From NCBI GenBank assembly GCA_934184665.1, contig CAKPSX010000004.1, forward strand, positions 728 to 64,727: 64,000 bases of DNA, in the 5' to 3' direction. Numbering within the stretch: position 1 is the first letter of the stretch; the number at the start of each line of letters is the position of its first letter. The stretch is from an uncultured Clostridia bacterium. GTDB lineage: Bacteria; Bacillota; Clostridia; TANB77; CAG-508. The translations under genes and the position numbers were made by a program. A model generated the notes under the pieces. It searched no databases. It saw only the letters and a program-made list of their open reading frames with translations, and had not been told where the DNA came from. Of this stretch, positions 4,672-42,422 are shown in pieces.

Positions 4672-5436
4672 ATGTTCTTAGTTTTCAACAAAGAAAAAAT
4701 AGACACATATTTAGTAGCAATTTTGACAGTGGCAGTATTGATAGGGATAGCAAGTTTTGATAAAGCAAAAGTGATTCCAACATCTGCAGTAGAGAGGAAT
4801 TTACCAATATATAATGTACAAACAGAGGAAAAAAAGCTTGCATTTACAATGAATTGTGCATGGAATGCAGATGATATTGATCAAATATTAGAAATACTAA
4901 AAAATAATGATGTAAAAATAACTTTTTTCATGGTAGGGGAATGGGTAGACAAATACCCGGATGCAGTAAAGAAAATTTATGAGGCAGGGCATGAAATAGG
5001 TAGTCATAGTAATACACATCCACATGTAAATAATTTAAGTAGTGAGAAAAACTTGGAGGAAATTAAACTAAGTGTAAGTAAGATTGAAAAAATAACAGGA
5101 AGTCAGACTAAATTATATAGAACTCCTTATGGTGAATATAATGATACAGTAATAAAAACAGCCACAGAAAATGGATATTATCCAATCCAATGGGATGTAG
5201 ATACTCTGGATTATGAAGGAAAAACAGGAGATGAAATGTGGGGAAGAATAAAAGGCAAAATAAAAAATGGTTCGATAATATTAAGCCATAATGGAACAAA
5301 ACACACTGCGGAAAGTTTGGATATGTTAATTAAGAATATAAAATCAAAAGGTTTTGAGATTGTTAAGGTGTCAGATTTAATATATCAAGATAATTATAGA
5401 ATTGATAATAATGGTATGCAACTTAAGCAACCGTAA
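4672..5436 (+). CDS. Polysaccharide deacetylase (NodB-domain, PdaB-like)
   Basis: N-terminal TM anchor and a NodB-type core (FTMNCAW..., ITFFMVGEW, GHEIGSHSNTHPH). Size is 254 aa. Confidence 0.8.
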   Translation: MFLVFNKEKIDTYLVAILTVAVLIGIASFDKAKVIPTSAVERNLPIYNVQTEEKKLAFTMNCAWNADDIDQILEILKNNDVKITFFMVGEWVDKYPDAVKKIYEAGHEIGSHSNTHPHVNNLSSEKNLEEIKLSVSKIEKITGSQTKLYRTPYGEYNDTVIKTATENGYYPIQWDVDTLDYEGKTGDEMWGRIKGKIKNGSIILSHNGTKHTAESLDMLIKNIKSKGFEIVKVSDLIYQDNYRIDNNGMQLKQP

Positions 5437-9608: not shown

Positions 9609-10550
9609 ATGGTTGAAGATAACCAAATCAAAGCACAAGTATCACCATTTGCAATAAGAGAAGGTGAAATAAAAACATTTGATGGAAAGGATGGATATGT
9701 ATCTATGAATCAAATAATACACAAAATAAATATTGGACATATAACAGATATTCATTTTGCAATATTAGAATTAGTAAATGAATTTGAATTCATAACATCA
9801 AGACAAATATATCAAATGCTTGAAATAAAAGGTTTTGAACCAAAATCACAAGATAAACTAAATAATAAATTAGAACAATTGGTAAAATCTAAAATATTAA
9901 CAAGATATTATTTCACTTCAGAAGAAGGGAAAGGAATATATAGAATATACTGCCTAGAAAAAATGGGAAAATACTTATTAACATCAAAAGAAATTGAATG
10001 TAAATGGCAACAAACAGATAATGTTAAGCCTGTTCCAATGATAAAGAAAAGATTGGCAGGAAATCAAACATTAATAGCATATCTAAGAAAAGTAAAAGCA
10101 TTAGATAGTTATGTTGTAAAACCATCATTAACTGCAAAAACAGTGGGCAAAACATTTAAGGCAACAGGCGGAGCCGTAAAACTTACAAAGAATAAAAAAT
10201 CAATTGTATTTTTATTTGAAGTAATAAGAAGAGAACAAGATTGGCAGAAAAAATTAGTAGATAAAATGACAATGTATAAAGATTTCTACGAAAATTTTGT
10301 TCCTGGAGATTCAGGATATTCATCACTTCCACAGTTAATATTTGTATGTGAAGATGATAAACACACAGTAGAAACATTTAAAGAAATTGTAAAAAATAAA
10401 CTAGAAATATCAAAAATAAAATTATATTTTACAACTGATTTAAGACAAAATCAAGAAACATTGGAAAATACATTAATTGAATTTAGAATTGATGAAGAAA
10501 CTAAAAAATATAAAATGTATAATGTTGAAGTAAAATTATTAGGAATGTAA
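9609..10550 (+). CDS. Hypothetical winged-helix protein, replication-relaxation-family-like
   Basis: Strong RBS (AAGGAGGG). N-terminal wHTH-like segment ILELVNEFEFITSRQIYQML...LEQLVKSKILTRYYF and later IVFLFEVIRREQDW. The resemblance to the replication-relaxation family is from memory only. Confidence 0.4.
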   Translation: MVEDNQIKAQVSPFAIREGEIKTFDGKDGYVSMNQIIHKINIGHITDIHFAILELVNEFEFITSRQIYQMLEIKGFEPKSQDKLNNKLEQLVKSKILTRYYFTSEEGKGIYRIYCLEKMGKYLLTSKEIECKWQQTDNVKPVPMIKKRLAGNQTLIAYLRKVKALDSYVVKPSLTAKTVGKTFKATGGAVKLTKNKKSIVFLFEVIRREQDWQKKLVDKMTMYKDFYENFVPGDSGYSSLPQLIFVCEDDKHTVETFKEIVKNKLEISKIKLYFTTDLRQNQETLENTLIEFRIDEETKKYKMYNVEVKLLGM

Positions 10551-10733: not shown

Positions 10734-10810
10734 GGGTCAGTAGCTCAGTTGGATAGAGCACGGGCCTTCTAAGCCCGGGGTCGGGGGTTCGAACCCCTCC
10801 TGGCTCACCA
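10734..10810 (+). tRNA. tRNA-Arg (anticodon UCU)
   Basis: Cloverleaf folded by hand. Acceptor is GGGTCAG/CTGGCTC, anticodon arm is CGGGC-CTTCTAA-GCCCG, T-arm is GGGGG-TTCGAAC-CCCTC, and CCA is encoded. Confidence 0.9.
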
Positions 10811-11276: not shown

Positions 11277-12399
11277 TTATTTACTTTTGCTACTTAAAGT
11301 AATCTCAAAAGTTCTCGAAATATGCCCACGACTAACATTAATAGAAATTGTATCACCAGGTTTCTTAGAATAAACATAAGCTCTAAGATCAAGCATAGTA
11401 TTAATAGAATTTCCATCAACAGAAGTAATAACATCACCAGTTCTAATACCACTAGAAATAGCAGGGCTATCATCACTGATATCAACAATATAAATTCCAG
11501 AATTAACATTTGCAGAAGATTCAAGATATGGTATAACATCTTTATCATAAGCAAGAATTCCAAGATATGCTTCATCAAAACCATTTTGAGTTACAAAACT
11601 TTCAATTACAGTTTTAATAACATTTATAGGCACAGCAAAGCCAATACCTTCAGCAGAAGTGATTTTAACAGTATTGATACCAATAACTTCTCCATTAGGC
11701 AAAATTAACGGACCTCCACTATTACCGAGGATTAATAGAAGCATCTGTCTGAATCAAATTGGTCATATAACATACATTATTATCTTCTTCTAATTTTATA
11801 GTTCTGTTTGTTGCACTTATAATTCCAGAAGTAACAGTTCTTTTAAATTCAAAACCAATTGGATTTCCAATAGCGTAAACAGTTTCACCAGACCTTAATT
11901 TAGAAGAATCACCAATAGTTGCATATGCAAGATTATCTGCTTTGATTTTTGTAATAGATAAATCTAAATCATCATCACACCAAACGACAGAGCCCTCATA
12001 GGTATAACCATTTTCGAGTGTAACATAACATGTGCTTAATGCTTCTCCTGTAACATGGCAATTACTCAAAATATAGCCATTACTTGAAACAATAATGCCA
12101 GTACCAAGTCCTAGGTCATCAACAAGACTGCTTGAAAAAATAGAACTTGAATGTGATTTTAAACGAGAAATACCAACAACACTTTGAGAAACATTTTCAA
12201 CCATGTCAGCAATTGAAGTGCTGTTTTCCGTAGAGTTATCCACAGTTTGTTCACTAACTGTGGAACTAATACGCTTAATATCATATTCTGGAGTAATGTC
12301 TATTTTGTTGTAAGCTGTGTATAAATAATATGAAAGAGCCAGTAAACCAATAACAACTATAACTATTATAAAAAAATTTCGTATCTTCTTTTTATTCAT
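11277..12399 (-). pseudogene. htrA: HtrA/DegP-family serine protease (TM anchor, trypsin-like domain, PDZ) interrupted by a 1-nt frameshift
   Basis: ORF 11722..12399 ends ...IQTDASINPR*. ORF 11277..11744 continues in another frame with ...GNSGGPLILPNGEVIGI and a PDZ domain. Minus-strand reading is aat cct C ggt aat agt gga ggt; the extra base is at about 11727. Confidence 0.8.
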
Positions 12400-12480: not shown

Positions 12481-12509
12481 TTGCAAAATTTGTAATAAAA
12501 TGTTATACT
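12481..12509 (+). promoter_or_regulatory. Promoter of the NRPS gene
   Basis: TTGCAA, a 17-nt spacer, then TATACT with an upstream TGt. Confidence 0.5.
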
Positions 12510-12544
12510 ATAAGAGGATAAATAAAATAAAAGGGTGAAAATAA

Positions 12545-15500
12545 ATGTTGAAAAAGATGGAGAATCTAACTAGCTCACAAAAATCTATATGGAGCGTAGA
12601 ACAGTATTTCAAAGGAAGCAGTATTAATAATATTTGTGGAACTGCTGTATTCAAAGAAGAAATCGATTTTAAAAAATTAGAAGAAGCAATAGAAATAGTA
12701 TGTAGTAAACATGATATTTTTAAAATCAGATTTAAAATCAAAGATGGAGAAATCATGCAAATGGTTTCAGATTCTAATGAATGTAACATTGAAATAATTG
12801 ATGTTAAAGATGTAGATGAACTTAAGAAGAAAAAAGAAGAGCTTACCCAAAAACCCTTCAAAATAGAAGAAAATTTATTATTCAAATTTTATATCTTTAA
12901 GTTTCCAAATGGTAAAGGGGCATTTATGCCTAGCATGCACCATTTAATTTCAGACGCTTGGACTATAGCACTTATTTATAATGAAATTATCGAAACATAT
13001 TCCATATTAAAACAAAACAAAGAAATTAAGGAGGAGGCTGTATATTCATATACAGACTATATTAAATCTGAACAAGAATACCAAGAAAGTGAAAAATTTA
13101 ATAAAGACAAACAATATTGGAAAGAAAAATTTGTTACAATACCAGATGTTGCAATAATACCAGGTAGTAAAAAGGAAAATGTTGATAGAACTAATCCAAA
13201 AGGAGAAAGAAATCAATATGAGATAGAAAAAGAGAATGTAGAAAAAATAAAGGAATATTGTAAAAAATATAAAATTTCATTATACAATTTCTTTATGGCT
13301 GTTTATGCAATATATATTGGGGAAATAACGAATTTAGATGAATTTGTTATTGGAACACCAATTTTAAATAGAACTAATTTCAAAGAAAAACACACTGCAG
13401 GTATGTTTATAAATATGGCACCATTCAAAATAAATATTGATGAGGAATTAGATTTTAAGGAATTTATAAAAAATATAGCAAGAGATTCACTAGGAATGTT
13501 AAAACATCAAAAATATTCATATCAATATTTATTAGAAGAACTAAGAAAACAAGATAGAAATATTCCAAGCTTGTATAATATTTTGCTGTCATATCAAATA
13601 ACAAATACAAAGCAAAATAATGGAAATGTAGAATATGAAACAGATTGGATATTTAATGGATGTTGTGCAGAAGATATAGATATACAAATATTTGATTTAA
13701 ATGATACAGGTGCGTTAAATATTTCATATGATTACAAAACAAGTATTTATAATCAAAAAGATATAGAAAAAATGCATACCAGAATATTAAATATTATGTT
13801 ACAAGTAATTCAAAAAGATGATATTAAATTAAAAGAAATAGAAGTAATTACGCCACAGGAAAAAGAAAAGGTTTTAGTTGAGTTTAATAAAACAGATTTA
13901 CAATATGATAAAAATAAACCATTTGCAAAATATTTTGAGGAACAAGCTCAAAATACGCCAGATGGAATAGCGATAGTATTTGAAAATAATAAAATCACAT
14001 ATAAGGAATTAAATGAAAAGGCAAATAGTCTAGCACATGTATTAAGAGATAATGGAGTAACAAATAATACTATAATAGGAATATTAGAAAAGCGTTCACC
14101 AGAAGTGCTTATATCAATGCTTGCAGTATTAAAAGCAGGAGGATGCTATATTCCTATAGCTACAGATTATCCAAATGAGAGAATAGAATATATGTTGCGA
14201 GACAGTGATGCAAGTATTTTACTTACAAGTGAAGGAAATAGAATTCATACAAATAAAAAGATTATAAATATAAAGGATGAGAAAATATACCAAGAAAATA
14301 AGGAAAATATAGAAAACATATCTCAACCAGATGATTTATCATATTTTATATATACATCAGGATCAACTGGAACTCCCAAAGGAGTCATGTTAAAACAACG
14401 AAATTTAAGCAATTTTTATAATTCAATGAAAACAATGATAGAATTTTTAAGGGACAGAGAGAACTATAAAATGCTTTCTATTACAACAATATCTTTTGAT
14501 ATATTTGCATTTGAGACACTAATGTCATTAACGAGAGGACTAACTGTATATTTAACAAATGAAAATGAACAAAAAATGACAAGTGAAATAGAAAGAATTA
14601 TAAAAGAAAATAAAATAGAAATTATGCAAACAACACCATCTGTAATGAAATTTCATATAGAAAATATAAAAAATAAAAGCAGTTTAAAAAGTCTGAAATA
14701 TATTATGCTAGCAGGTGAACCATTACCAAAGCAACTTGTAGAAAGAATAAAGGGTATTATTCCAAAAGTAACAATATATAATGGGTATGGACCATCTGAA
14801 ACTACTATATTTTCAGCCATTGCAGATGTTACTAATCAGACAACAATTACTATAGGAAAGCCTATAAATAATACACAAATATATATATTAAATAAAAATA
14901 AAAAATTAATGCCACAAGGAATGATTGGAGAAATTTATATATCTGGAGATGGCGTAGGAAAAGGATATATGAATAAAGAAGAACAGACAAAAGTAAACTT
15001 CATTCAGGATATTTTTGATAGTTCAAAAATAATGTACAAAGTAGGAGATTTAGGTGCATTTAATGAAAATGGAGAAATAACTTGTTGTGGAAGAATTGAT
15101 AATCAAGTAAAAATAAGAGGATTAAGAATTGAACTTGCGGAAATAGAAAGGCAAATGCAATCAATTTATAATATAGCGGATTGTGTTGTTGTAAAAAAAG
15201 TTGTAAATGATAAAGACACATTATGTGCATATTATGTGGAAAACGGACCTGTAAATAAATCTGTTTTACAAACAATATTACATTCAAAATTACCAGAATA
15301 TATGATACCACAATATTTTGTAAAACTTGATAAAATACCACATACACCAAATGGAAAAATTGATAGACTAGAATTACCAGAACCTAACTTGGAAGAAAGT
15401 GAAAACGAGTTTGTAAAACCTAGAAACGAAATAGACAGAAAATTAGCAAGAAGAATTAAAAAGATGTTGCAAATAGACAAAGTTAGCATAAATGATACAT

Positions 15501-18500
15501 TACTTCAACTTGGTGGGGATTCACTTACGGCAATAACTTTATCAACTAAAATAGTCTCAGAATATAATGTGCAAATAAATATAAAAGATATATTATCAAA
15601 CTATACGATAAAAGACATATCAGATTATATTGAGAAAAATAAGTCAAAAGATGTATCAAATGTAAAAATAGAAAAAGCACCAGCACAAGAAACATATCCA
15701 TTATCATCAGCACAAAAAAGAATATATTATAATTCAAAAATGATAGGTGAAAATAATGTCGTTTATAATACACCAGGTGGAATTATAATTGATGAAATTT
15801 TAAATATTAAAAAAATTAAAGAAGTATTTTCTAAAATAACTAAAAGACATGAAATTTTAAGAACAAAACTTGAAGTACAAGATGGAGAAATAGTGCAAAG
15901 GGTATATGATAATATCGAGTTTGACATACCAGTTTACTATAATACACAAGAGGAAATAACAGACATACTTAAAAAATTCACTAAGCCTTTTAGATTAGAA
16001 GATGAAATATTGTTTAGAGTAGAAGTTCATTATATTGATGAAAAAAGTACAATATTATTAGTAGATGCACATCATATGATTATGGATGGAATATCACTAA
16101 ATAACTTGATTATAGAGTTTAATAGATTATATAATGGTTCAGATTTAAAGAATTTACCAATACAATATAAGGATTATTCTGTTTGGGAGAATAAGCATAA
16201 TCAAAGTAAAGAAATATTACCAAGTGAAAATTATTGGGTGAAAAAATTGAAAGATTGTAAATTCACTCCTACAAACTTACCTTATGATTATAAACTTTTA
16301 GCCAATAGAAGCTATAACGGTAACAAGATAATTAATGTTATTGATGAAAAGAAATTTAGAAAAATAGAAAGATATGCAAAAAAGATAGGTGCATCACCAT
16401 ATATGCTATTTGTATCAGCACTTTTGATATTACTATATAAATACACAGGCCAAAATGAGATAATTTTAGGTAGCCCTATAGCAAACAGAAATAGAAATGA
16501 AACTAAAAGAATGATAGGCATGTTTGTAAATAATATTGTAATTAGAGGGAATATAAATGGAAATGAAACATATGAAGAATTTTTAGAGAAGATAAAAGAG
16601 CAATTGCTAAATGATTTATCATATCAACCATATCCTTTTGATATGCTTATAAAAAAATTAGGAGTAAAAACTGATAATTCAAGAAACCCGCTATTTGACG
16701 TGATGTTTACATATCAAAATAAAGAAGAAAATATGGTAAAGTTAAATGGCAAAAATATAAATGTTTTAGAATTATATAATAATATAGCGAAGTTTAATTT
16801 ATCAATTGAGATAAAACCAAAAACACATACTATAAATATAGAATATTGTAGTGATTTATTTAAAAAAGACACAATTATAAATTTCTTTGAACATTATATG
16901 TATGTAATAGAACAGATATTAAATAACAATGAGATTAAGATAGATGATATAAATATAATAACAGAAAAAGAAAATAAGTTGTTGAAAAAATTCAATGAGA
17001 CAGATGGAGAAATAAATAATGATACAACAGCATATTTGATTGAAAAACAGGTTGATGAAAATCCAAATAATATTGCGGTTATATGTGAAGACAAAAAAAT
17101 AACATATAAAGAATTAGACGAAAAGGCAAATAGTTTAGCAAACCATCTTATAGAAAAAGGAATAAAAAGAAATGACATTGTTTGTATAATGACAAATAGG
17201 TCAATAGAAACAATTGTTGCAATGTATGCGATACTTAAAGCTGGTGGGGCATTTTTAAACATAGACCCAACATATCCATTAGACAGAACCAAACATTATA
17301 TTGAAAATAGTAAATCACAATATGTGTTAACACAAAGAGAATTAAAAGATAGAGTTAAAGAGATTCCTAATTGTATAGAAATTGATTTAGATAATGAACT
17401 ATACAATAAAAACTCAAGCAGACCAAATGTAGATATAAAAATGGAAGACTTATCTTATATTATATATACATCAGGTTCAACAGGAATTCCAAAAGGAGTA
17501 ATGTTAAATCAAGTAGGATTAGCAAATATGTCTAAAGCAATGACAAAAGCATTAGATTATTTACATGATGGCAAGATTCATACACTATTATCAGTAACAT
17601 CAACACCATTTGATATATTTGTATATGAAATAATTGTTTCATTAACACATGGACAAAAAATAGTTATGGCAAATAATGCTGAACATAGAAATCCTACATT
17701 ACTTGAAAACCTGATGGAAAAATACAATACAGATGTCATGACAGTAACACCAAGTTTAATGAAAATAATATATGATAATAAAAGAGAAGATTCACCATTG
17801 AAATTAGTGAAAAATATGGTTTTTGGTGGAGAGCCATTACCAGAAAAATTTGTTAAAGATTTAAAAGCACTAGCAGATGATATAACAGTATTTAATATTT
17901 ATGGACCAAGTGAAATAACAATTTTATCAAATGTTCAAAACTTAAATGGAGAAACAGAAATTACAACAGGTCCACCAATAATGAATACACAAATACATAT
18001 ATTAGATAAAAATATGAAAAGAGTTCCAATTGGAGTTGTGGGAGAGATTTATATCTCTGGAATACAAGTTGGAGAAGGATATTTAGGTAATCCAGAATTA
18101 ACTCAAGAGAAATTTTTACCCAATAAATATGGTAAAGGAAAAATGTATAAAACAGGTGATATTGGTAGATGGACATTTGATGGAAAAGTTCAATGCTTAG
18201 GAAGAATTGATAATCAAGTAAAATTAAGAGGTTTAAGAATTGAACTTGGAGAGATTGAAAATAAAATGGAAGAATATCCAGGTGTATCATCAGCCGTTGT
18301 AAATAAAGTTACAATTGATAATAAAGATTCTCTATGTGGGTATTATGTTACAGACGATACGATTGATGTAACAGAAACTGAGATAAAAGCATTTTTGAAA
18401 AAATATTTACCGCAATATATGGTTCCAACTTATATTGTACATTTAAAGAAAATGCCTTATTCAATAAATAGAAAAATAGATAGAAAAGCATTACCGATGC

Positions 18501-20005
18501 CAGAAATCAAAGAAAGAGAATTTAAAGAAGAAAATCCAGATGATTTTGCCACAGATGAATTAAAATTGTTACAAATATGGAAAAATATTTTACACATAAA
18601 TAAAATATCTTTATATGATAATTTCTTTGATATAGGAGGAGATTCAATTTCAGCAATAAAAATGCAAATAGAAGCATTAAAGTATGATTTTGATTTTGAA
18701 TATTCTGATATATTTAAATATCCAACAATAAAAGAATTAGCGAATATGAGAAGTAAACACAAAGAATTAAAAAAAGATATATCAAAATATGACTATACTG
18801 AGATTAATAAAATCTTATCAAAAAATACAATATCAAATATTTCAACAATAAAGAAATATAATGTTAATAATATTCTTTTGATAGGAGGCACAGGATATTT
18901 AGGAGTACATGTATTAGATAAATTTTTAAAAGAAGAAAATGGAAAAATATATTGCTTAATTAGAAGAAAAGATGATGAAGAACCATTAGCTAGATTGAAA
19001 CAAAAAATTGTATTTTATTTTGGAAATGAGTATTATGAGAAATATCAAGATAGAATACAAATAATAGAGGGAGATATTGTTAAGGAAAATCTTGCAATAT
19101 CTGAAAAAGACAAAGATGTACTTAAAAATGAGGTTACAACAGTAGTAAATGCAGGTGCACTAGTAAAACATTTTGGTACAGCAAAATTATTTAATGATAT
19201 AAATGTTTTAGGAACTCAAAATGTTGTTGACTTTTGCAAAACGTTAGGAAAAAGACTAATACATATTTCAACAATAAGTGTATCTGGTAATGGAGAAAAA
19301 GAAGAAACTATAGAAGAAACAAAGGAAAACATAAACAACAAAAAGCTATTTAGAGAAAATACTTTGTATATTGGACAAAACTTAGAGGGAGTATATACAA
19401 CAACAAAATACCAAGCAGAAATAATTGTATTAAAAGCAATTGAGGATGGACTTGATGCACAGATTTTAAGAATGGGCAATATTACAAATAGATATAGTGA
19501 TGGGGTATTTCAACAAAATGTTGAGGAAAATGCATTTGCAAAAAGGTTAAAATCATTTATAGAATTGGGTGTAATTCCTGAATATTTATTACAGCATTCT
19601 GTTGAACTGGGACCTGTAGATTTATGTGCAGAAGCGGTTATCAAAATATTACAATATAATAGTGAATGTAATGTTTTTCATATATATAATCCGAAATTAT
19701 TACCAATAAAATTATTTATTAATACTTTAAATGAGATAGGAATTAATATTAAAGGTATTAATGAAGATGAAATGACAAAAAAATTAATAGAAACTTTAAA
19801 TGATGACTTTAAAAAAGAAATTTTATCTGGTATAATACATGATATTAGTAAAAATAAAAAATTAATATATACATCAAATGTAAAAATCGATTGTGAATTT
19901 ACAGAAAAATATTTAGAAAAAATAGGATTTTTCTGGAAAGATATTGATAAAGAGTATATATTAAAATATATGAACTATTTTAAAAAAATAGGATTTATAC
20001 AATAG
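12545..20005 (+). CDS. Bimodular non-ribosomal peptide synthetase, C-A-T-C-A-T-R (terminal thioester reductase)
   Basis: Approximate domain positions follow. C1 is 12557-13880 (SSQKSIW, MHHLISDAW at 12935). A1 is 13937-15364 (YTSGSTGTPKG, GYGPSETT, YKVGDLG, RIDNQVKIRGLRIE, PNGKIDR). T1 has LGGDSLTAI with Ser at about 15521. C2 is 15677-16985 (DAHHMIMDG at 16064). A2 is 17042-18500 (YTSGSTGIPKG, YGPSEIT, YKTGDIGRW, NRKIDRK). T2 has IGGDSISAI with Ser at about 18644. R is 18872-20002 (IGGTGYLGVHV, YTTTKYQAE). Confidence 0.95.
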   Translation: MLKKMENLTSSQKSIWSVEQYFKGSSINNICGTAVFKEEIDFKKLEEAIEIVCSKHDIFKIRFKIKDGEIMQMVSDSNECNIEIIDVKDVDELKKKKEELTQKPFKIEENLLFKFYIFKFPNGKGAFMPSMHHLISDAWTIALIYNEIIETYSILKQNKEIKEEAVYSYTDYIKSEQEYQESEKFNKDKQYWKEKFVTIPDVAIIPGSKKENVDRTNPKGERNQYEIEKENVEKIKEYCKKYKISLYNFFMAVYAIYIGEITNLDEFVIGTPILNRTNFKEKHTAGMFINMAPFKINIDEELDFKEFIKNIARDSLGMLKHQKYSYQYLLEELRKQDRNIPSLYNILLSYQITNTKQNNGNVEYETDWIFNGCCAEDIDIQIFDLNDTGALNISYDYKTSIYNQKDIEKMHTRILNIMLQVIQKDDIKLKEIEVITPQEKEKVLVEFNKTDLQYDKNKPFAKYFEEQAQNTPDGIAIVFENNKITYKELNEKANSLAHVLRDNGVTNNTIIGILEKRSPEVLISMLAVLKAGGCYIPIATDYPNERIEYMLRDSDASILLTSEGNRIHTNKKIINIKDEKIYQENKENIENISQPDDLSYFIYTSGSTGTPKGVMLKQRNLSNFYNSMKTMIEFLRDRENYKMLSITTISFDIFAFETLMSLTRGLTVYLTNENEQKMTSEIERIIKENKIEIMQTTPSVMKFHIENIKNKSSLKSLKYIMLAGEPLPKQLVERIKGIIPKVTIYNGYGPSETTIFSAIADVTNQTTITIGKPINNTQIYILNKNKKLMPQGMIGEIYISGDGVGKGYMNKEEQTKVNFIQDIFDSSKIMYKVGDLGAFNENGEITCCGRIDNQVKIRGLRIELAEIERQMQSIYNIADCVVVKKVVNDKDTLCAYYVENGPVNKSVLQTILHSKLPEYMIPQYFVKLDKIPHTPNGKIDRLELPEPNLEESENEFVKPRNEIDRKLARRIKKMLQIDKVSINDTLLQLGGDSLTAITLSTKIVSEYNVQINIKDILSNYTIKDISDYIEKNKSKDVSNVKIEKAPAQETYPLSSAQKRIYYNSKMIGENNVVYNTPGGIIIDEILNIKKIKEVFSKITKRHEILRTKLEVQDGEIVQRVYDNIEFDIPVYYNTQEEITDILKKFTKPFRLEDEILFRVEVHYIDEKSTILLVDAHHMIMDGISLNNLIIEFNRLYNGSDLKNLPIQYKDYSVWENKHNQSKEILPSENYWVKKLKDCKFTPTNLPYDYKLLANRSYNGNKIINVIDEKKFRKIERYAKKIGASPYMLFVSALLILLYKYTGQNEIILGSPIANRNRNETKRMIGMFVNNIVIRGNINGNETYEEFLEKIKEQLLNDLSYQPYPFDMLIKKLGVKTDNSRNPLFDVMFTYQNKEENMVKLNGKNINVLELYNNIAKFNLSIEIKPKTHTINIEYCSDLFKKDTIINFFEHYMYVIEQILNNNEIKIDDINIITEKENKLLKKFNETDGEINNDTTAYLIEKQVDENPNNIAVICEDKKITYKELDEKANSLANHLIEKGIKRNDIVCIMTNRSIETIVAMYAILKAGGAFLNIDPTYPLDRTKHYIENSKSQYVLTQRELKDRVKEIPNCIEIDLDNELYNKNSSRPNVDIKMEDLSYIIYTSGSTGIPKGVMLNQVGLANMSKAMTKALDYLHDGKIHTLLSVTSTPFDIFVYEIIVSLTHGQKIVMANNAEHRNPTLLENLMEKYNTDVMTVTPSLMKIIYDNKREDSPLKLVKNMVFGGEPLPEKFVKDLKALADDITVFNIYGPSEITILSNVQNLNGETEITTGPPIMNTQIHILDKNMKRVPIGVVGEIYISGIQVGEGYLGNPELTQEKFLPNKYGKGKMYKTGDIGRWTFDGKVQCLGRIDNQVKLRGLRIELGEIENKMEEYPGVSSAVVNKVTIDNKDSLCGYYVTDDTIDVTETEIKAFLKKYLPQYMVPTYIVHLKKMPYSINRKIDRKALPMPEIKEREFKEENPDDFATDELKLLQIWKNILHINKISLYDNFFDIGGDSISAIKMQIEALKYDFDFEYSDIFKYPTIKELANMRSKHKELKKDISKYDYTEINKILSKNTISNISTIKKYNVNNILLIGGTGYLGVHVLDKFLKEENGKIYCLIRRKDDEEPLARLKQKIVFYFGNEYYEKYQDRIQIIEGDIVKENLAISEKDKDVLKNEVTTVVNAGALVKHFGTAKLFNDINVLGTQNVVDFCKTLGKRLIHISTISVSGNGEKEETIEETKENINNKKLFRENTLYIGQNLEGVYTTTKYQAEIIVLKAIEDGLDAQILRMGNITNRYSDGVFQQNVEENAFAKRLKSFIELGVIPEYLLQHSVELGPVDLCAEAVIKILQYNSECNVFHIYNPKLLPIKLFINTLNEIGINIKGINEDEMTKKLIETLNDDFKKEILSGIIHDISKNKKLIYTSNVKIDCEFTEKYLEKIGFFWKDIDKEYILKYMNYFKKIGFIQ

Positions 20006-20056: not shown

Positions 20057-21877
20057 ATGGAATTAGTAAACACAGAATTTGTATTATTAGTAATATCTAC
20101 ACTTTCAATAATATTATTAATATTTAATATTACTAGAAAAAGACCATTATCACAATTACAATATGCATTTACATCACTTTTAGTAAATATTTTGATTATA
20201 AGCGTTGGCGTAATTTCGCAGCTAGTTTGTACTACAGTTGGGAATGTCGGGCCAATTATATTTGAAAATTTTATATACATAGGAACATGTTTATTGCCAG
20301 TGTCATTGTTCTTTGTTGCAATAATATTTAAAAATACGAAAATAAGATTTAAAAAACGATATTTGCTATTATTTGTAATACCATTGCTGACACTTGCAAT
20401 ACTTTACACAAATAAATATCATCATTTATTTTATAAAATGTATTCTTCAAACTTAAATGAAATGATATATGGACCATATTTCTATGTACATACAATCTAT
20501 ACTTATGGATTACTTCTAATAAGTATGGGGATAATGATAAATTCATCATTCAAAAATTCGGGTGCATTTTCAAAACAAACTGTGTTAATAGTAATTGGAA
20601 CGGCATTTCCAATATTAATTAATGTTTTGGGCACACTTAAAATATATGATATGAATGTATGTTTTACACCAATAAGTTTTTCAATAGCGACGATATTCTA
20701 CACATTTGCAATATTAAAATTTAACTTTTTGAAAATCACACCAATTGCATTACAAAAAATAGTTGATAGAATATCAGATGGATATGTTGTTCTTGATGAA
20801 AGCAATACAGTTATTGATTTTAACAAAACATTTTTGGACATTTTTAAATTAAGCCCTGAAGAAATCAGAAGTGAAAACTTTATTAAATTTTTGCAAAAGA
20901 AAAATATGAATAAAAGGACAGTATCTAAAATAGAAAAAGAACTTAAAAGAGCAAATGAGGCAGAAGTAACAATAACATTTGAACAACATTTTTCATATAT
21001 AAAGAAATATTTTAAAATTGAAATAACACCAATAAATATAGATAATACATCATTGGGAACAATATTTTTATTAAAAGATATTACACAACATAAACAAGAT
21101 ATGGAAACAATAAGGAATAATCAAGATGTATTAATGGAAAGAGAGCGATTGGCTTCTTTAGGACAATTAATAGGTGGAATAGCACATAATTTAAAAACGC
21201 CGATAATGTCAATTGCAGGAGCGACAGAAGCTTTGGAGGAATTAATAAAAGAATATGACGAATCAATTGATGATCCATTAGTAAATTCACAAGACCATCA
21301 TGATATAGCAAAAGATATGGAAAGTTGGATACCAAAAATAAGAACACATATAGAATATATGTCAGATATCATAACAACAGTAAAAGGACAGGCGGTTGCA
21401 CTATCAAATGATAAGACAATGTCATTCACAATTGGAGAATTAATTAAAAGAGTAAATATTTTAATGAAACATGAATTAAAAAATGCATATATATATTTAA
21501 ATATTCTTATGAAAACAGATGAGAATTTAGTGCTAAAAGGTGATGTTAATGCATTAGTCCAAGTTTTAAATAATATGATAACAAATGCAATACAAGCATA
21601 TAATGGTGTTCGTGATAAAAATATTGAACTTGAAGTAAATAAAAAAGGAAATGATATAATAATATCATTAACAGATTATGCTGGAGGACTTCCAAAAGAG
21701 GTTCAAGATAAATTATTTAAAGAAATGGTTACAACAAAAGGAAAAAATGGAACGGGTCTAGGGTTGTATATGTCATATTCTAATATAAGAGCAAGATTTG
21801 GCGGAGATATAACATATAGAACCGAAGAAGGAAAAGGAACAACTTTCAGTATAATAATTCCAACAAATAAATTATAA
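20057..21877 (+). CDS. Sensor histidine kinase with a multi-pass (about 7TM) N-terminal domain and a PAS-like linker
   Basis: About 230 aa of hydrophobic helices, then the H-box GGIAHNLKTPI, N-box NNMITNAIQA, and G-boxes DYAGGLP and GTGLGLY. Confidence 0.85.
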   Translation: MELVNTEFVLLVISTLSIILLIFNITRKRPLSQLQYAFTSLLVNILIISVGVISQLVCTTVGNVGPIIFENFIYIGTCLLPVSLFFVAIIFKNTKIRFKKRYLLLFVIPLLTLAILYTNKYHHLFYKMYSSNLNEMIYGPYFYVHTIYTYGLLLISMGIMINSSFKNSGAFSKQTVLIVIGTAFPILINVLGTLKIYDMNVCFTPISFSIATIFYTFAILKFNFLKITPIALQKIVDRISDGYVVLDESNTVIDFNKTFLDIFKLSPEEIRSENFIKFLQKKNMNKRTVSKIEKELKRANEAEVTITFEQHFSYIKKYFKIEITPINIDNTSLGTIFLLKDITQHKQDMETIRNNQDVLMERERLASLGQLIGGIAHNLKTPIMSIAGATEALEELIKEYDESIDDPLVNSQDHHDIAKDMESWIPKIRTHIEYMSDIITTVKGQAVALSNDKTMSFTIGELIKRVNILMKHELKNAYIYLNILMKTDENLVLKGDVNALVQVLNNMITNAIQAYNGVRDKNIELEVNKKGNDIIISLTDYAGGLPKEVQDKLFKEMVTTKGKNGTGLGLYMSYSNIRARFGGDITYRTEEGKGTTFSIIIPTNKL

Positions 21878-21946: not shown

Positions 21947-22615
21947 ATGTGTTTTATAGTAGCAGTAGATGGACCAGCTGGTAGTGGAAAGGGTACAGTA
22001 ACAAAAAGAATTGAAAAAGAATTAGGTTTAGTTAATTTAGATACAGGTGCAACTTATAGATGTGTTGCTTTAGATGCAATAAGACATGGGTTCAAAGCAG
22101 AAGATGAAGAGAAAATAATAAAAATGCTAAATGGTATAAACATCAAAATAGAAAAAAAGGATGGAAAGGATGTAATATTTCTTAATGGTGAAGATGTTAG
22201 TAAAGAAATACGTGATTTACCTGTAACTAAAATGGTTTCACAAATATCATCAATAATTCCTGTAAGAGAAAAACTAATTGAAATTCAAAGAGGTTTGGCA
22301 AAGGGAAAAAATGTTATTGCAGAGGGCAGAGATATTGGAACCGTAGTATTTCCAGATGCAAACTTAAAAATTTATTTAGATGCAAATGAGAAAATTAGAG
22401 CTGAAAGAAGATATAAGGAATATCTTGAAAATGGAGTAAGTACAACTTATGAAGAAGTTTTAGAAAGTATAAAAACAAGAGATATGAATGATAAAAATAA
22501 AAAGTTTGGAGCATTGAAAAAAGCAGATGATGCAATAGTTGTAGATACTTCAAATAAAACAATTGATGAAGTTACAGAAGAAGTAAAAGGATTAATTAAA
22601 CAAAAAATGATATAA
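21947..22615 (+). CDS. cmk: Cytidylate kinase
   Basis: P-loop VDGPAGSGKGT, plus DTGATYR and GRDIGTVVFPDA. Confidence 0.9.
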   Translation: MCFIVAVDGPAGSGKGTVTKRIEKELGLVNLDTGATYRCVALDAIRHGFKAEDEEKIIKMLNGINIKIEKKDGKDVIFLNGEDVSKEIRDLPVTKMVSQISSIIPVREKLIEIQRGLAKGKNVIAEGRDIGTVVFPDANLKIYLDANEKIRAERRYKEYLENGVSTTYEEVLESIKTRDMNDKNKKFGALKKADDAIVVDTSNKTIDEVTEEVKGLIKQKMI

Positions 22616-22893: not shown

Positions 22894-23099
22894 TTTAAAA
22901 TCCTTTCTTAATTTACAAAAATGTTTATAAATATTCAATTTTAGTATATCAAGCCAGATTAGAAAAAGCAAATAAAATGTTAAAATGTCATAAAAAAGAA
23001 ATATTTGTAACAATAATGTAATAAAATAAAAATTTTGTAAAAAGCTTGATTTTTATTGTATTAATTAATATAATAACAATATCTAATATAAGGGGTGGT

Positions 23100-24170
23100 A
23101 TGATGAGAAAGGCACTTCAGAATCAACTAAAAGGAACAAAAGAAGAGAAGTATAAAATTATAGCAGTAGATGATGAAGCAGGAATAATTGATTCATTATC
23201 TGTATTTTTAAGAAAAACGAACTATGAATATGTAGGAGTAACAGATCCTGTTGAGGCCATTGAAAGAGTAAAAAAAGAACATTTTGATTTAATGTTATTA
23301 GACTTTATGATGACACCATTGCATGGTGATGAAGTCGTAGAAGAAATTAGAAAATTTAATAAAGAATTATATATATTGTTGCTAACAGGTCATAAAGATT
23401 TAGCACCACCATTAGAAACAATAAAAAGACTTGATATACAAGGTTACTGTGAAAAAAGTGATAAATTTGATCAGCTATTATTGTTAATTGAGTCTGGAAT
23501 AAAATCAATAAAACAAATGCAGGAAATAAAAAGAATAAATGCTGAGCTTGAAGAAACAAATGAAAAATTAGAACAAGCTTATTTAGATAGTGTTGAAACA
23601 TTAAGATATACTGTAGAAGCAAAAGACCCATATACAAGAGGTCATTCTGATAGAGTATCTGAATTTTCTGTATTGATTGGAAAAAAATTAGGGCTACCAG
23701 AAGAGCAATTAAAAATATTACGAATTGGTGGATTATTCCATGATATTGGCAAAATAGGAATACCGGATAATATTTTACAAAAAGAGTCAAAACTAACAGA
23801 TGATGAATATTCAGAAATAAAAAATCATCCATCAATTGGTGTACATATTTTGGGTTCAGCAGAAATATTTAAAGATATAATACCAATAGTAAAACATCAT
23901 CATGAAAGATATGATGGTAGAGGTTATCCATCAGGTTTAAAAGGAGAGGAAATACCTTATATTGCAAGAATTGCAGCAGTTGCAGATACTTTTGATGCAA
24001 TGACAAGTAAAAGAAGTTATAGAGATGCATTAGATTTGCAAGTTGTAAAAGATGAGATAAAAAGATGTGAAGGCACACAGTTTGACCCAGAAATAGCTGA
24101 AGTATTTTTGGAGATATTAAACAATGAATATGAAAGTATTAAAGAAATACAAGATAAATATATAAAATAA
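23100..24170 (+). CDS. Response regulator with an HD-GYP (c-di-GMP phosphodiesterase-type) output domain
   Basis: AAGGGGTGG RBS precedes the ATG at 23100. Receiver domain (IIAVDDE, LMLLDFMMTP, LLLTGH). HD-GYP motifs are GGLFHDIGKIGIP and HHERYDGRGYPSGL. Confidence 0.85.
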   Translation: MMRKALQNQLKGTKEEKYKIIAVDDEAGIIDSLSVFLRKTNYEYVGVTDPVEAIERVKKEHFDLMLLDFMMTPLHGDEVVEEIRKFNKELYILLLTGHKDLAPPLETIKRLDIQGYCEKSDKFDQLLLLIESGIKSIKQMQEIKRINAELEETNEKLEQAYLDSVETLRYTVEAKDPYTRGHSDRVSEFSVLIGKKLGLPEEQLKILRIGGLFHDIGKIGIPDNILQKESKLTDDEYSEIKNHPSIGVHILGSAEIFKDIIPIVKHHHERYDGRGYPSGLKGEEIPYIARIAAVADTFDAMTSKRSYRDALDLQVVKDEIKRCEGTQFDPEIAEVFLEILNNEYESIKEIQDKYIK

Positions 24171-35196: not shown

Positions 35197-35272
35197 TGGT
35201 CGAGGCGACAGGAATCGAACCTGCGACCTCATGGTCCCAAACCACGCGCGCTACCAACTGCGCTACGCCTCG
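35197..35272 (-). tRNA. tRNA-Pro (anticodon UGG)
   Basis: The reverse complement folds as acceptor CGAGGCG/CGCCTCG, anticodon arm CGTGG-TTTGGGA-CCATG and T-loop TTCGATT, with CCA encoded. Confidence 0.9.
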
Positions 35273-35516: not shown

Positions 35517-35593
35517 GCGCCTGTAGTTTAGCTGGATAGAATGGCAGGCTACGAACTTGCAGACCGGGGGTTCGAGTCCCTCCAGGCGCACCA
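35517..35593 (+). tRNA. tRNA-Arg (anticodon ACG)
   Basis: Acceptor GCGCCTG/CAGGCGC, anticodon arm GCAGG-CTACGAA-CTTGC and T-loop TTCGAGT, with CCA encoded. Confidence 0.9.
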
Positions 35594-42161: not shown

Positions 42162-42422
42162 TGTCAAAAGCCGAAGAGAAAGCAAAGTAAATATATCACA
42201 AAAGTATTACAGAGAAGATGACAAAGCTGAGAGTCATTTATACAAGATATATTGAAATTTCACTTTAGAGGTCTTACTTTGAATAATAGTAGAAGTAAGC
42301 GGTTGAACCGTTAAAACTATAATGAGGTTAATAAAATGCTTGGAAAAAGCATAATTAATAAAATTAGGTGGTACCACGAAAGAGCCATTCGTCCTAAGTG
42401 CAGGATGATTGGCTCTTTTTAC
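42162..42422 (+). promoter_or_regulatory. T-box leader (Phe specifier) controlling pheS-pheT
   Basis: AGAGA/GCTGAGAG stem-I elements. Candidate specifier UUC-A at about 42259. Conserved T-box AAATTAGGTGGTACCACG at 42361. Terminator aagagcca...tggctcttttt at 42380-42420. Confidence 0.85.

Follow-up and report, generated by a model that had tools for sequence, protein, structure and literature searches.

An uncultured Clostridia bacterium (GTDB lineage Bacteria; Bacillota; Clostridia; TANB77; CAG-508) carries, on contig CAKPSX010000004.1 of assembly GCA_934184665.1, a large gene for a non-ribosomal peptide synthetase (NRPS), which is the subject of this analysis. The window—the whole stretch of 64,000 nucleotides (nt) that was analysed, positions 728 to 64,727 of the contig—holds the gene as a single open reading frame (ORF), the only one listed at its coordinates, with a gene for a histidine kinase bearing a seven-transmembrane (7TM) sensor domain close behind it (Table 1). 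An earlier note on this DNA had placed the synthetase at exactly these coordinates, had read its domain order as condensation, adenylation, carrier, condensation, adenylation, carrier, reductase (C-A-T-C-A-T-R), and had called it a stand-alone, one-gene cluster followed by a 7TM sensor kinase. The kinase is there, and the domain order is correct by Pfam. ‘Stand-alone’ is wrong: at every related locus with an intact synthetase and downstream sequence a kinase of this kind lies 0–74 nt downstream, with no terminator between the two genes here, and the NRPS leads a conserved gene pair.

Architecture of the synthetase

All seven domains occur in order, with Pfam E-values from 1e-184 to 1e-20: two matches to Condensation (E 1e-184), two to AMP-binding (1.6e-165), two to PP-binding and one to NAD_binding_4, at amino acids (aa) 2113–2365 (1.2e-48). 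The core catalytic motifs are intact (HHxxxD, A3/A8/A10 and the GGDS serine), and those that had been quoted before—HHLISDA, GGTGYLG and YTTTK—are all present. SGSTGxPKG, GEIYI, YK(V/T)GD, GRIDNQVK(I/L)RG and N(G/R)KIDR are found in both adenylation domains, A1 and A2, alike. A 7.5-kb open frame in DNA of 26–27% guanine-plus-cytosine content (~26% across the gene, 25–36% over the window) with Pfam scores such as these is far beyond chance. In comparisons with two relatives, at loci L002 and L001, the ratio of nonsynonymous to synonymous divergence (dN/dS) is 0.04–0.22 in every domain, which indicates that the gene is maintained by purifying selection. With the needed domains and catalytic residues in place, and under such selection, the enzyme appears to be functional.

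The best NCBIfam model is that of AusA (NF047350), which matches aa 378–2481, all but the first condensation domain (C1), with 1652.6 bits; this is below the curated equivalog cut-off of 2500. The window yielded no phosphopantetheinyl transferase (PPTase), MbtH protein, acyl-CoA ligase or transporter on inspection of its ORFs, just as had been remarked before, and phmmer searches of it with unverified Sfp, AcpS and MbtH query sequences returned a best E-value of 0.18.

Table 1. Features of the NRPS locus, in window coordinates
Feature	Coordinates	Strand	Details	Basis
NRPS gene	12545..20005	+	2486 aa, ATG start, C-A-T-C-A-T-R	ORF call, Pfam, motifs, dN/dS
C1, starter (lipoinitiation) condensation domain	12566..13879	+	aa ~8-445	bit scores, N-terminal position
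A1 adenylation	13934..15385	+	aa ~464-947; code DIFQMAGIFK, non-canonical	alignment to GrsA-PheA
T1 carrier	15440..15631	+	GGDSL aa 990-994; PP-binding aa 966-1029	Pfam, motif
C2, LCL-like elongation condensation domain	15686..16984	+	aa 1048-1480; HHMIMDG aa 1176-1182	Pfam
A2 adenylation	17051..18502	+	aa ~1503-1986; code DIYTVGIILK, non-canonical	alignment to GrsA-PheA
T2 carrier	18563..18754	+	GGDSI aa 2031-2035	Pfam, motif
R, terminal SDR-type thioester reductase	18872..20002	+	aa ~2110-2486	Pfam NAD_binding_4, PDB matches
Histidine kinase	20057..21877	+	606 aa; HisKA_7TM aa 10-229, PAS 232-346, HisKA/HATPase_c 368-603	Pfam
Response regulator, REC + HD-GYP (HD_5)	23046..24170	+	true start probably near 23100	Pfam
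Block shared with L002	14900..21200	+	A1 3′ end, T1, C2, A2, T2, R, spacer, kinase 7TM and PAS	
Sigma-A-type promoter candidate	12481..12509	+	-35 TTGCAA, 17-nt spacer, extended -10 TGtTATACT	consensus scan
NRPS ribosome-binding site	~12531-12538	+	AAAGGGTG, after the promoter candidate	
htrA (trypsin-like protease + PDZ), divergent	11277..12399	-	halves 11277-11744 and 11722-12399	Pfam, sequence

The starter condensation domain

C1 occupies the extreme N-terminus of the ORF, and Pfam finds no carrier domain before it. Its catalytic motif, HHLISDA, lies at aa 132–138 (nt 12938–12958). It scores 241 bits against the starter domain of SrfAA, with 30% identity from end to end, and 224–232 bits against surfactin and lichenysin starter sequences from the database, which the second condensation domain, C2, matches with 119–134 bits only. 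Against its own C2, C1 scores 113 bits, and against the best elongation-type (LCL) domain in the Protein Data Bank (PDB), that of TycC, 107 bits. The starter domains in the PDB match it weakly, RzmA-Cs with 58 bits and CDA-C1 with 51. The SrfAA reference sequence was verified; it is 98–99% identical to B. subtilis database fragments and 52% identical to ‘lchAA’. The ranking of C1 homologs summed bits over the many condensation domains of giant synthetases, so each domain was re-scored separately. When the domains of 150 representative proteins were scored one by one in this way, all of those above 160 bits proved to be N-terminal in their proteins, and in synthetases with 4–7 condensation domains the internal ones reached at most ~120 bits. 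The motifs NRTNxKEK and SEQEY...KDK..W are common to C1 and the starter domains of SrfAA and LchAA, although the assembly lines themselves are different: those for surfactin and lichenysin have seven modules and a thioesterase at the end, whereas the one described here is bimodular and ends in a reductase. Judged by pairwise bit scores and N-terminal position, C1 is a starter-type domain and not a degenerate one, and what the earlier note had said of it gains support.

Might C1 be vestigial nonetheless? A synthetase with a non-acylating C1 would release a free dipeptide aldehyde in the manner of AusA, and this would go on to become a dihydropyrazinone or pyrazinone. AusA is the best family model, after all, the glycine of HHxxxDG is an alanine in C1, and the window has neither an acyl-CoA ligase nor an acyl carrier protein (ACP). 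The alanine is no lesion, however, but part of a family-wide pattern, HHxxxD[A/S/G]W, and HHxxxD itself is conserved in 118 of 120 relatives. C1 has a dN/dS of 0.13–0.21, as expected under purifying selection, it groups with Bacillus starter domains, and similar gut Clostridium clusters needed no dedicated ligase to make N-acylated aldehydes in E. coli (PMC8518294). We consider loss of acylation very improbable, and prefer to regard C1 as an active starter.

Specificity and chain release

Stachelhaus codes were obtained by alignment to GrsA-PheA, the sequence of which was verified against 1AMU. In A1, position 278 was read as Q by eye, undoing a 1-residue slip of the hidden-Markov-model alignment that had given T. 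The same correction applied to relatives turns DILTLGMIWK into DILQLGMIWK, the canonical code for Gly; DAFWLGGTFK and DFWNIGMVHK, also present among the relatives, are the canonical codes for Val and Thr. Several further codes in the relatives are non-canonical. The code of A2 is lined with hydrophobic residues and recurs in 30 or more relatives, and module 2, through A2, would set the aldehyde-bearing P1 residue of the predicted product. Met for A1 and a Phe-like residue for A2 were considered and are not claimed, neither code being canonical. Motif A10 of A2 (18467–18484) reads NRKIDR, in place of the usual NGKxDR, and keeps the conserved Lys (GrsA 517). Between the two modules, C2 scores 269.5 bits against the LCL domain of TycC (2jgp).

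The terminal reductase, R, has the Rossmann motif GGTGYLG at aa 2114–2120, the catalytic Thr within HISTISV at aa 2240–2246, and YTTTK at aa 2284–2288, with Tyr2284 and Lys2288. The GxxGxxG and the Thr/Tyr/Lys triad align with those of the aldehyde-forming AusA reductase domain (4f6c; 132 bits), and so the reductase of the earlier note stands as described. The closest solved structure, over aa ~2077–2484 and with 192 bits, is 6VTJ, confirmed as the peptidyl carrier protein–reductase (PCP-R) portion of Mru_0351 (PMC8024701). That structure and its companion, 6VTZ, are the nearest to the T2-R portion here, and they come from an archaeon of the rumen, Methanobrevibacter ruminantium, and from an NRPS whose product is uncharacterised (PMC8024701), whereas the present NRPS is clostridial.

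A reductase of this sort could conceivably reduce by four electrons, in which case the product would be an N-acyl dipeptide alcohol, devoid of a protease warhead. Aldehyde- and alcohol-type NRPS reductase domains share the triad and the fold, the alcohol-forming MxaA domain also matches R significantly (99 bits), and the extent of reduction, aldehyde or alcohol, is not yet predictable from sequence or structure (PMC8024701). But the nearer characterised match is AusA, which forms an aldehyde, and characterised gut Clostridial relatives release aldehydes too (PMC8518294, PMC12327764). Release as an alcohol seems unlikely to us, and release as an aldehyde is the reading kept in what follows.

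The predicted product and its known relatives

If these assignments are right, C1 would take a fatty acyl group from primary metabolism, supplied as acyl-CoA or acyl-ACP, and attach it to amino acid 1, itself loaded on T1 by A1. C2 would then couple this N-acyl-aminoacyl thioester to the second amino acid, held on T2, and R, using NAD(P)H, would free an N-acyl dipeptide aldehyde. Because its amine would be acylated, such a product could not cyclise to a pyrazinone, and should last instead, inhibiting Ser/Cys/Thr proteases covalently and reversibly. A starter-type C1 and an intact R together make the N-acyl dipeptide aldehyde, which the earlier note had also put forward, the best prediction; the chemistry is well supported, if unproven, and agrees with the literature on gut Clostridium NRPSs.

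A family of NRPSs for dipeptide aldehydes and pyrazinones was reportedly found in gut Clostridia by Guo et al. in 2017 (Cell 168:517), and the present enzyme, by its predicted product, belongs with such peptide-aldehyde synthetases functionally, as an ordinary member of a known family of medical interest. In both cases there are a gut-Clostridia host, a terminal reductase, a two-module peptide, an N-terminal condensation domain for an N-acyl tail, and protease inhibition as the expected activity (PMC8518294, PMC8210680). One cluster from a gut Clostridium (MIBiG BGC0001686) yielded N-octanoyl-Met-Phe-H when expressed in E. coli (PMC8518294). Peptide aldehydes of gut Clostridia inhibit cathepsins and proteasomes (PMC8518294, PMC12327764, PMC8210680), and the last of these papers credits the N-acyl tail with stabilising the aldehyde. 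Compared with the 2017 family by description, the present synthetase has non-canonical adenylation codes, and its product may therefore differ.

Ruminopeptin, from the Ruminococcus bromii rup cluster (Schneider and Balskus 2018), is likewise an N-acylated dipeptide aldehyde, predicted from a gut Clostridial NRPS, and a protease inhibitor (PMC12327764, PMC8518294). Again by description, rup differs in its organism group, and the A2 code here is without the acidic-residue-binding features that point to Glu at P1. AusA, the aureusimine synthetase of Staphylococcus aureus, shares the A-T-C-A-T-R core and the catalytic residues of R. It has no starter domain, whereas the enzyme described here has C1, and so the free-amine aldehyde that AusA releases cyclises to pyrazinones.

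A probable NRPS–kinase operon

The kinase gene begins 51 nt after the NRPS stop codon, with a ribosome-binding site of its own (AAAGGGAG), and a terminator scan of the window found no terminator-like hairpin separating it from the NRPS gene. We examined 21 loci from species representatives and 12 more, metagenomic ones, chosen for diverse terminal adenylation codes. Wherever the NRPS is intact and its downstream sequence available, a kinase homolog follows 0–74 nt behind (29 of 29 loci). In 27 of these both genes are intact, and the remaining two fit as well: in L032 the kinase is truncated by the end of the contig, and in L033 it is divided between two ORFs. The pair is kept even in L027, L028 and L030, where the flanking genes are different. 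The kinase is also split in L018.

A response regulator, REC-HD-GYP, usually follows the kinase—directly so in L024, L006, L014 and L019—and is 75–89% identical across the loci; it is likely the partner of the kinase. In the window and in L002 only, cmk (21947–22615) is found between kinase and regulator. The orientation of tex in the window, L002 and L010 is the opposite of that in most relatives, a local rearrangement of the backbone.

Upstream, the promoter that the earlier note had ascribed to the gene now has a candidate, and a better case. Hexamers resembling a promoter occur at chance frequency in DNA as AT-rich as this (103 found, 107 expected), but the pattern TTGCAA–17 nt–TGnTAnAnT is conserved: -35, TG and -10 do not vary among six related loci (the window, L002, L001, L003, L004 and L011), within surrounding spacer that averages 70% identity. 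Upstream of the NRPS, neither a riboswitch nor a leader RNA was found.

A mosaic cassette

The NRPS's last module (A-T-R) and the 7TM sensor of the kinase make up a single hypervariable block set in a conserved backbone. We compared pairwise identities, segment by segment, over 27 loci, by Spearman correlation with permutation p-values. C1, A1 and the kinase core vary in step (C1 versus kinase core, 0.82). The 7TM sensor does not go with the kinase core to which it is joined (0.09); it follows the last carrier domain (0.73) and the reductase (0.66) of the neighbouring gene, instead. With the kinase core controlled for, the partial correlation between 7TM and R is 0.66 (p = 0.0005).

Single pairs of loci make the same point. 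L001 and L011 are alike in their backbone—tex 94% identical in nucleotides, regulator 93%, kinase core 93%, C1 82%—and very different in the cassette, where the terminal A domains are 45% identical, the reductases 35% and the 7TM sensors 47%. The edges are sharp: in 60-aa windows, aa 1–1440 of the two synthetases are mostly 82–98% identical (two windows are at 65–73%), and from aa 1441 to the end the figures drop to 27–58%, whereas aa 1–240 of the kinases are 25–62% identical and residues beyond aa 300, 87–98%. In L008 versus L015, likewise, tex (94% in nucleotides) and the kinase core (94%) contrast with R (38%) and 7TM (19%). In independent comparisons the edges of the block fall at domain junctions: C2|A2, A|T, 7TM|PAS and PAS|kinase core.

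The window itself shows the reverse pattern, a near-identical block between diverged flanks. From ~14,900 to ~21,200 it is 96–99% identical in nucleotides to L002, and only 69–86% on both flanks; synonymous divergence (dS) is 0.08–0.14 within the block and 1.30 (C1) and 1.23 (kinase core) outside it. High identity and low dS confined to this stretch point to recent horizontal exchange, with the L002 lineage, of exactly that block. A chimeric assembly was considered as the source of the 97% block and rejected, for the exact protein occurs on five contigs and 36 cluster members come from independent assemblies.

The number of modules varies, too, at this one chromosomal site. Some loci have a monomodular C-A-T-R enzyme (1448 aa, L015 and L016), others bimodular ones, trimodular ones (~3510–3540 aa) or an NRPS of 3010 aa. 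Where the NRPS is monomodular, an unrelated N-terminus stands in place of the kinase's entire sensor half, and the kinase core is still 80% identical. Terminal module and 7TM are inherited, and horizontally exchanged, together, in a lineage of uncultured gut Clostridia with small, low-GC genomes. The variants lie at 5113–9459 in L015, 7099–11442 in L016, 9941–20557 in L008 and 1588–10620 in L029, and there are others in L026–L028. The Pfam order of the 3010-aa NRPS, C-A-T-C-T-C-A-T-R, suggests a module without an A domain.

How far the reading holds

That the gene encodes a functional bimodular NRPS, that it makes an N-acyl dipeptide aldehyde, and that it heads a conserved pair with the kinase, across which a block is exchanged, we hold, as a whole, to be about 70% probable. 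Several things weigh against it. Neither A1 nor A2 has a code that matches a canonical one, and this clouds the identities of both residues. Two-electron and four-electron release are indistinguishable in the sequence of a reductase domain (PMC8024701). The window encodes no PPTase and no acyl-activating enzyme, and so activation depends on genes elsewhere. The product is a prediction, likened to those of characterised clusters by description. Finally, in L012 and L018–L021 the NRPS is broken into 2–5 ORFs (region 10001 to ~17450), perhaps by pseudogenisation or errors of assembly, and in L019–L021 the kinase beside it is intact; kinases, it seems, can persist without the synthetase.

Does the kinase sense the product?

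In the agr (AgrB/D/C) and comQXP pherotype loci, a hypervariable block extends over the 3′ part of the signal-synthesis genes and the 5′, sensor part of the kinase gene. The present locus has the same outward form: a contiguous hypervariable region that spans the 3′ part of the synthase and the sensor of the receptor, conserved flanks on either side, and sharing across species. This is analogy only. The signals of agr and comQXP are ribosomal peptides, whereas the one predicted here would be a non-ribosomal lipopeptide aldehyde; the output of the regulator is HD-GYP, not DNA-binding; and the 7TM sensor does not closely track the specificity of the A domain.

Still, joint inheritance of terminal module and sensor, of the kind seen in agr and comQXP, suggests that the kinase senses the product. 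NRPS and kinase might then constitute a self-contained chemical signalling module of a novel type, with the N-acyl peptide aldehyde as cognate ligand, turnover of cyclic di-GMP by way of REC-HD-GYP as the response, and the terminal-module/7TM cassettes as ‘pherotypes’ exchangeable between gut Clostridia that live together. We regard the idea as doubtful. Were it true, the locus would be a non-ribosomal counterpart of agr or comQXP, and the inhibition of host proteases would be incidental, or an additional function. The regulator’s output is enzymatic rather than transcriptional, however, which counts against signalling of this kind.

The alternative, to which we give odds a little short of even, is that pairing and joint variability have no functional meaning. 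The genes would stay together by lineage-specific synteny, and vary together since a recombination hot spot replaces adjacent DNA as one. Much of what tells against signalling is also in keeping with this. All of the sampled loci come from one broad lineage with the same backbone, htrA-NRPS-kinase-regulator-tex. The 7TM sensor tracks the adjacent T and R domains far better than it does the terminal A domain, which confers specificity (partial correlation 0.18, p = 0.057). Within one group of 7TM sensors, 57–81% identical, the terminal A codes are different, the Gly code in some and DIFQTAGVFK in others. And the kinases of L019–L021, mentioned above, are intact next to fragmented synthetases. 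Other observations speak against mere adjacency. The NRPS–kinase pair survives where the flanks are different, gaps of 0–74 nt are typical of co-transcription, the boundaries of the block coincide with domain junctions in both proteins, and in the monomodular loci the sensor half of the kinase is swapped as a whole on a conserved core.

Distribution and significance

Hits among GTDB species representatives come, 21 out of 21, from metagenome-assembled genomes (MAGs) of uncultured Clostridia of gut or rumen type. Among these are Hadza and Nepal MAGs, MGYG-HGUT, Clostridium sp. CAG:389, 28_12 and 26_21, and one of the hits is a complete chromosome of 1.55 Mb. The protein database has more than 1800 relatives; the exact protein of the window is found on five contigs, and a relative at 74% identity represents a 90%-identity cluster of 1295 member sequences. 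Numbers of this size indicate that the gene is common in gut metagenomes.

In the literature searched we found no published description of an obligatory downstream 7TM kinase or of a mosaic cassette, and as far as we could find the conserved NRPS–kinase operon, with its exchangeable terminal-module/sensor cassette, is undescribed. Few natural products of the microbiome have a defined host target; the peptide aldehydes made by gut Clostridia, which act on the cathepsins, belong to these few. What the molecules do for their producers, and how they are regulated, is obscure because the producers are uncultured. In this one widespread lineage the synthetase has been kept vertically, and maintained by selection, in a genome of roughly 1.5 Mb. 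A single chromosomal site accommodates one, two or three modules and different terminal amino acids, and the variable part of the NRPS is tied, physically and evolutionarily, to a membrane kinase's sensor domain. The locus thus offers a testable hypothesis about native function, together with naturally matched alleles of synthetase and sensor on which to try it.

Neighbouring genes

Divergent from the NRPS is htrA, and it is indeed frameshifted, as had been noticed before. A 1-nt insertion (C) inside the catalytic GNSGGP motif, at ~11722–11744, splits the gene. Read in frame, the sequence is CCT CGG TAA TAG; after a +1 shift it becomes CCT-c-GGT AAT AGT GGA GGT (PGNSGG). The htrA of L002 (8732–9854) has the same insertion, and in L014 (CAG:389) htrA is split at another position. 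A decaying pseudogene is disfavoured, for dN/dS is 0.18–0.21 in the halves at a dS of 0.75–0.9 (cmk: 0.15). The gene looks to be still under selection, with, for example, a programmed +1 frameshift at the Pro codon that precedes the rare CGG. The evidence here does not support membership of htrA in the NRPS system; its position is better described as backbone synteny.

Just upstream of htrA, and beside a tRNA gene (10734–10807), is an ORF (9609–10550) with a weak match to Replic_Relax (replication-relaxation); the ORF may be a remnant of an integrated element. The rest of the window is occupied by genes of housekeeping function: rluD, cmk, tex, pflBA, frr, uppS, cdsA, pheST, ffh and leuS. Two more tRNA genes lie at 35200–35272 (-) and 35517–35590 (+), and a T-box leader (42165–42399, 111 bits) precedes pheS/pheT.

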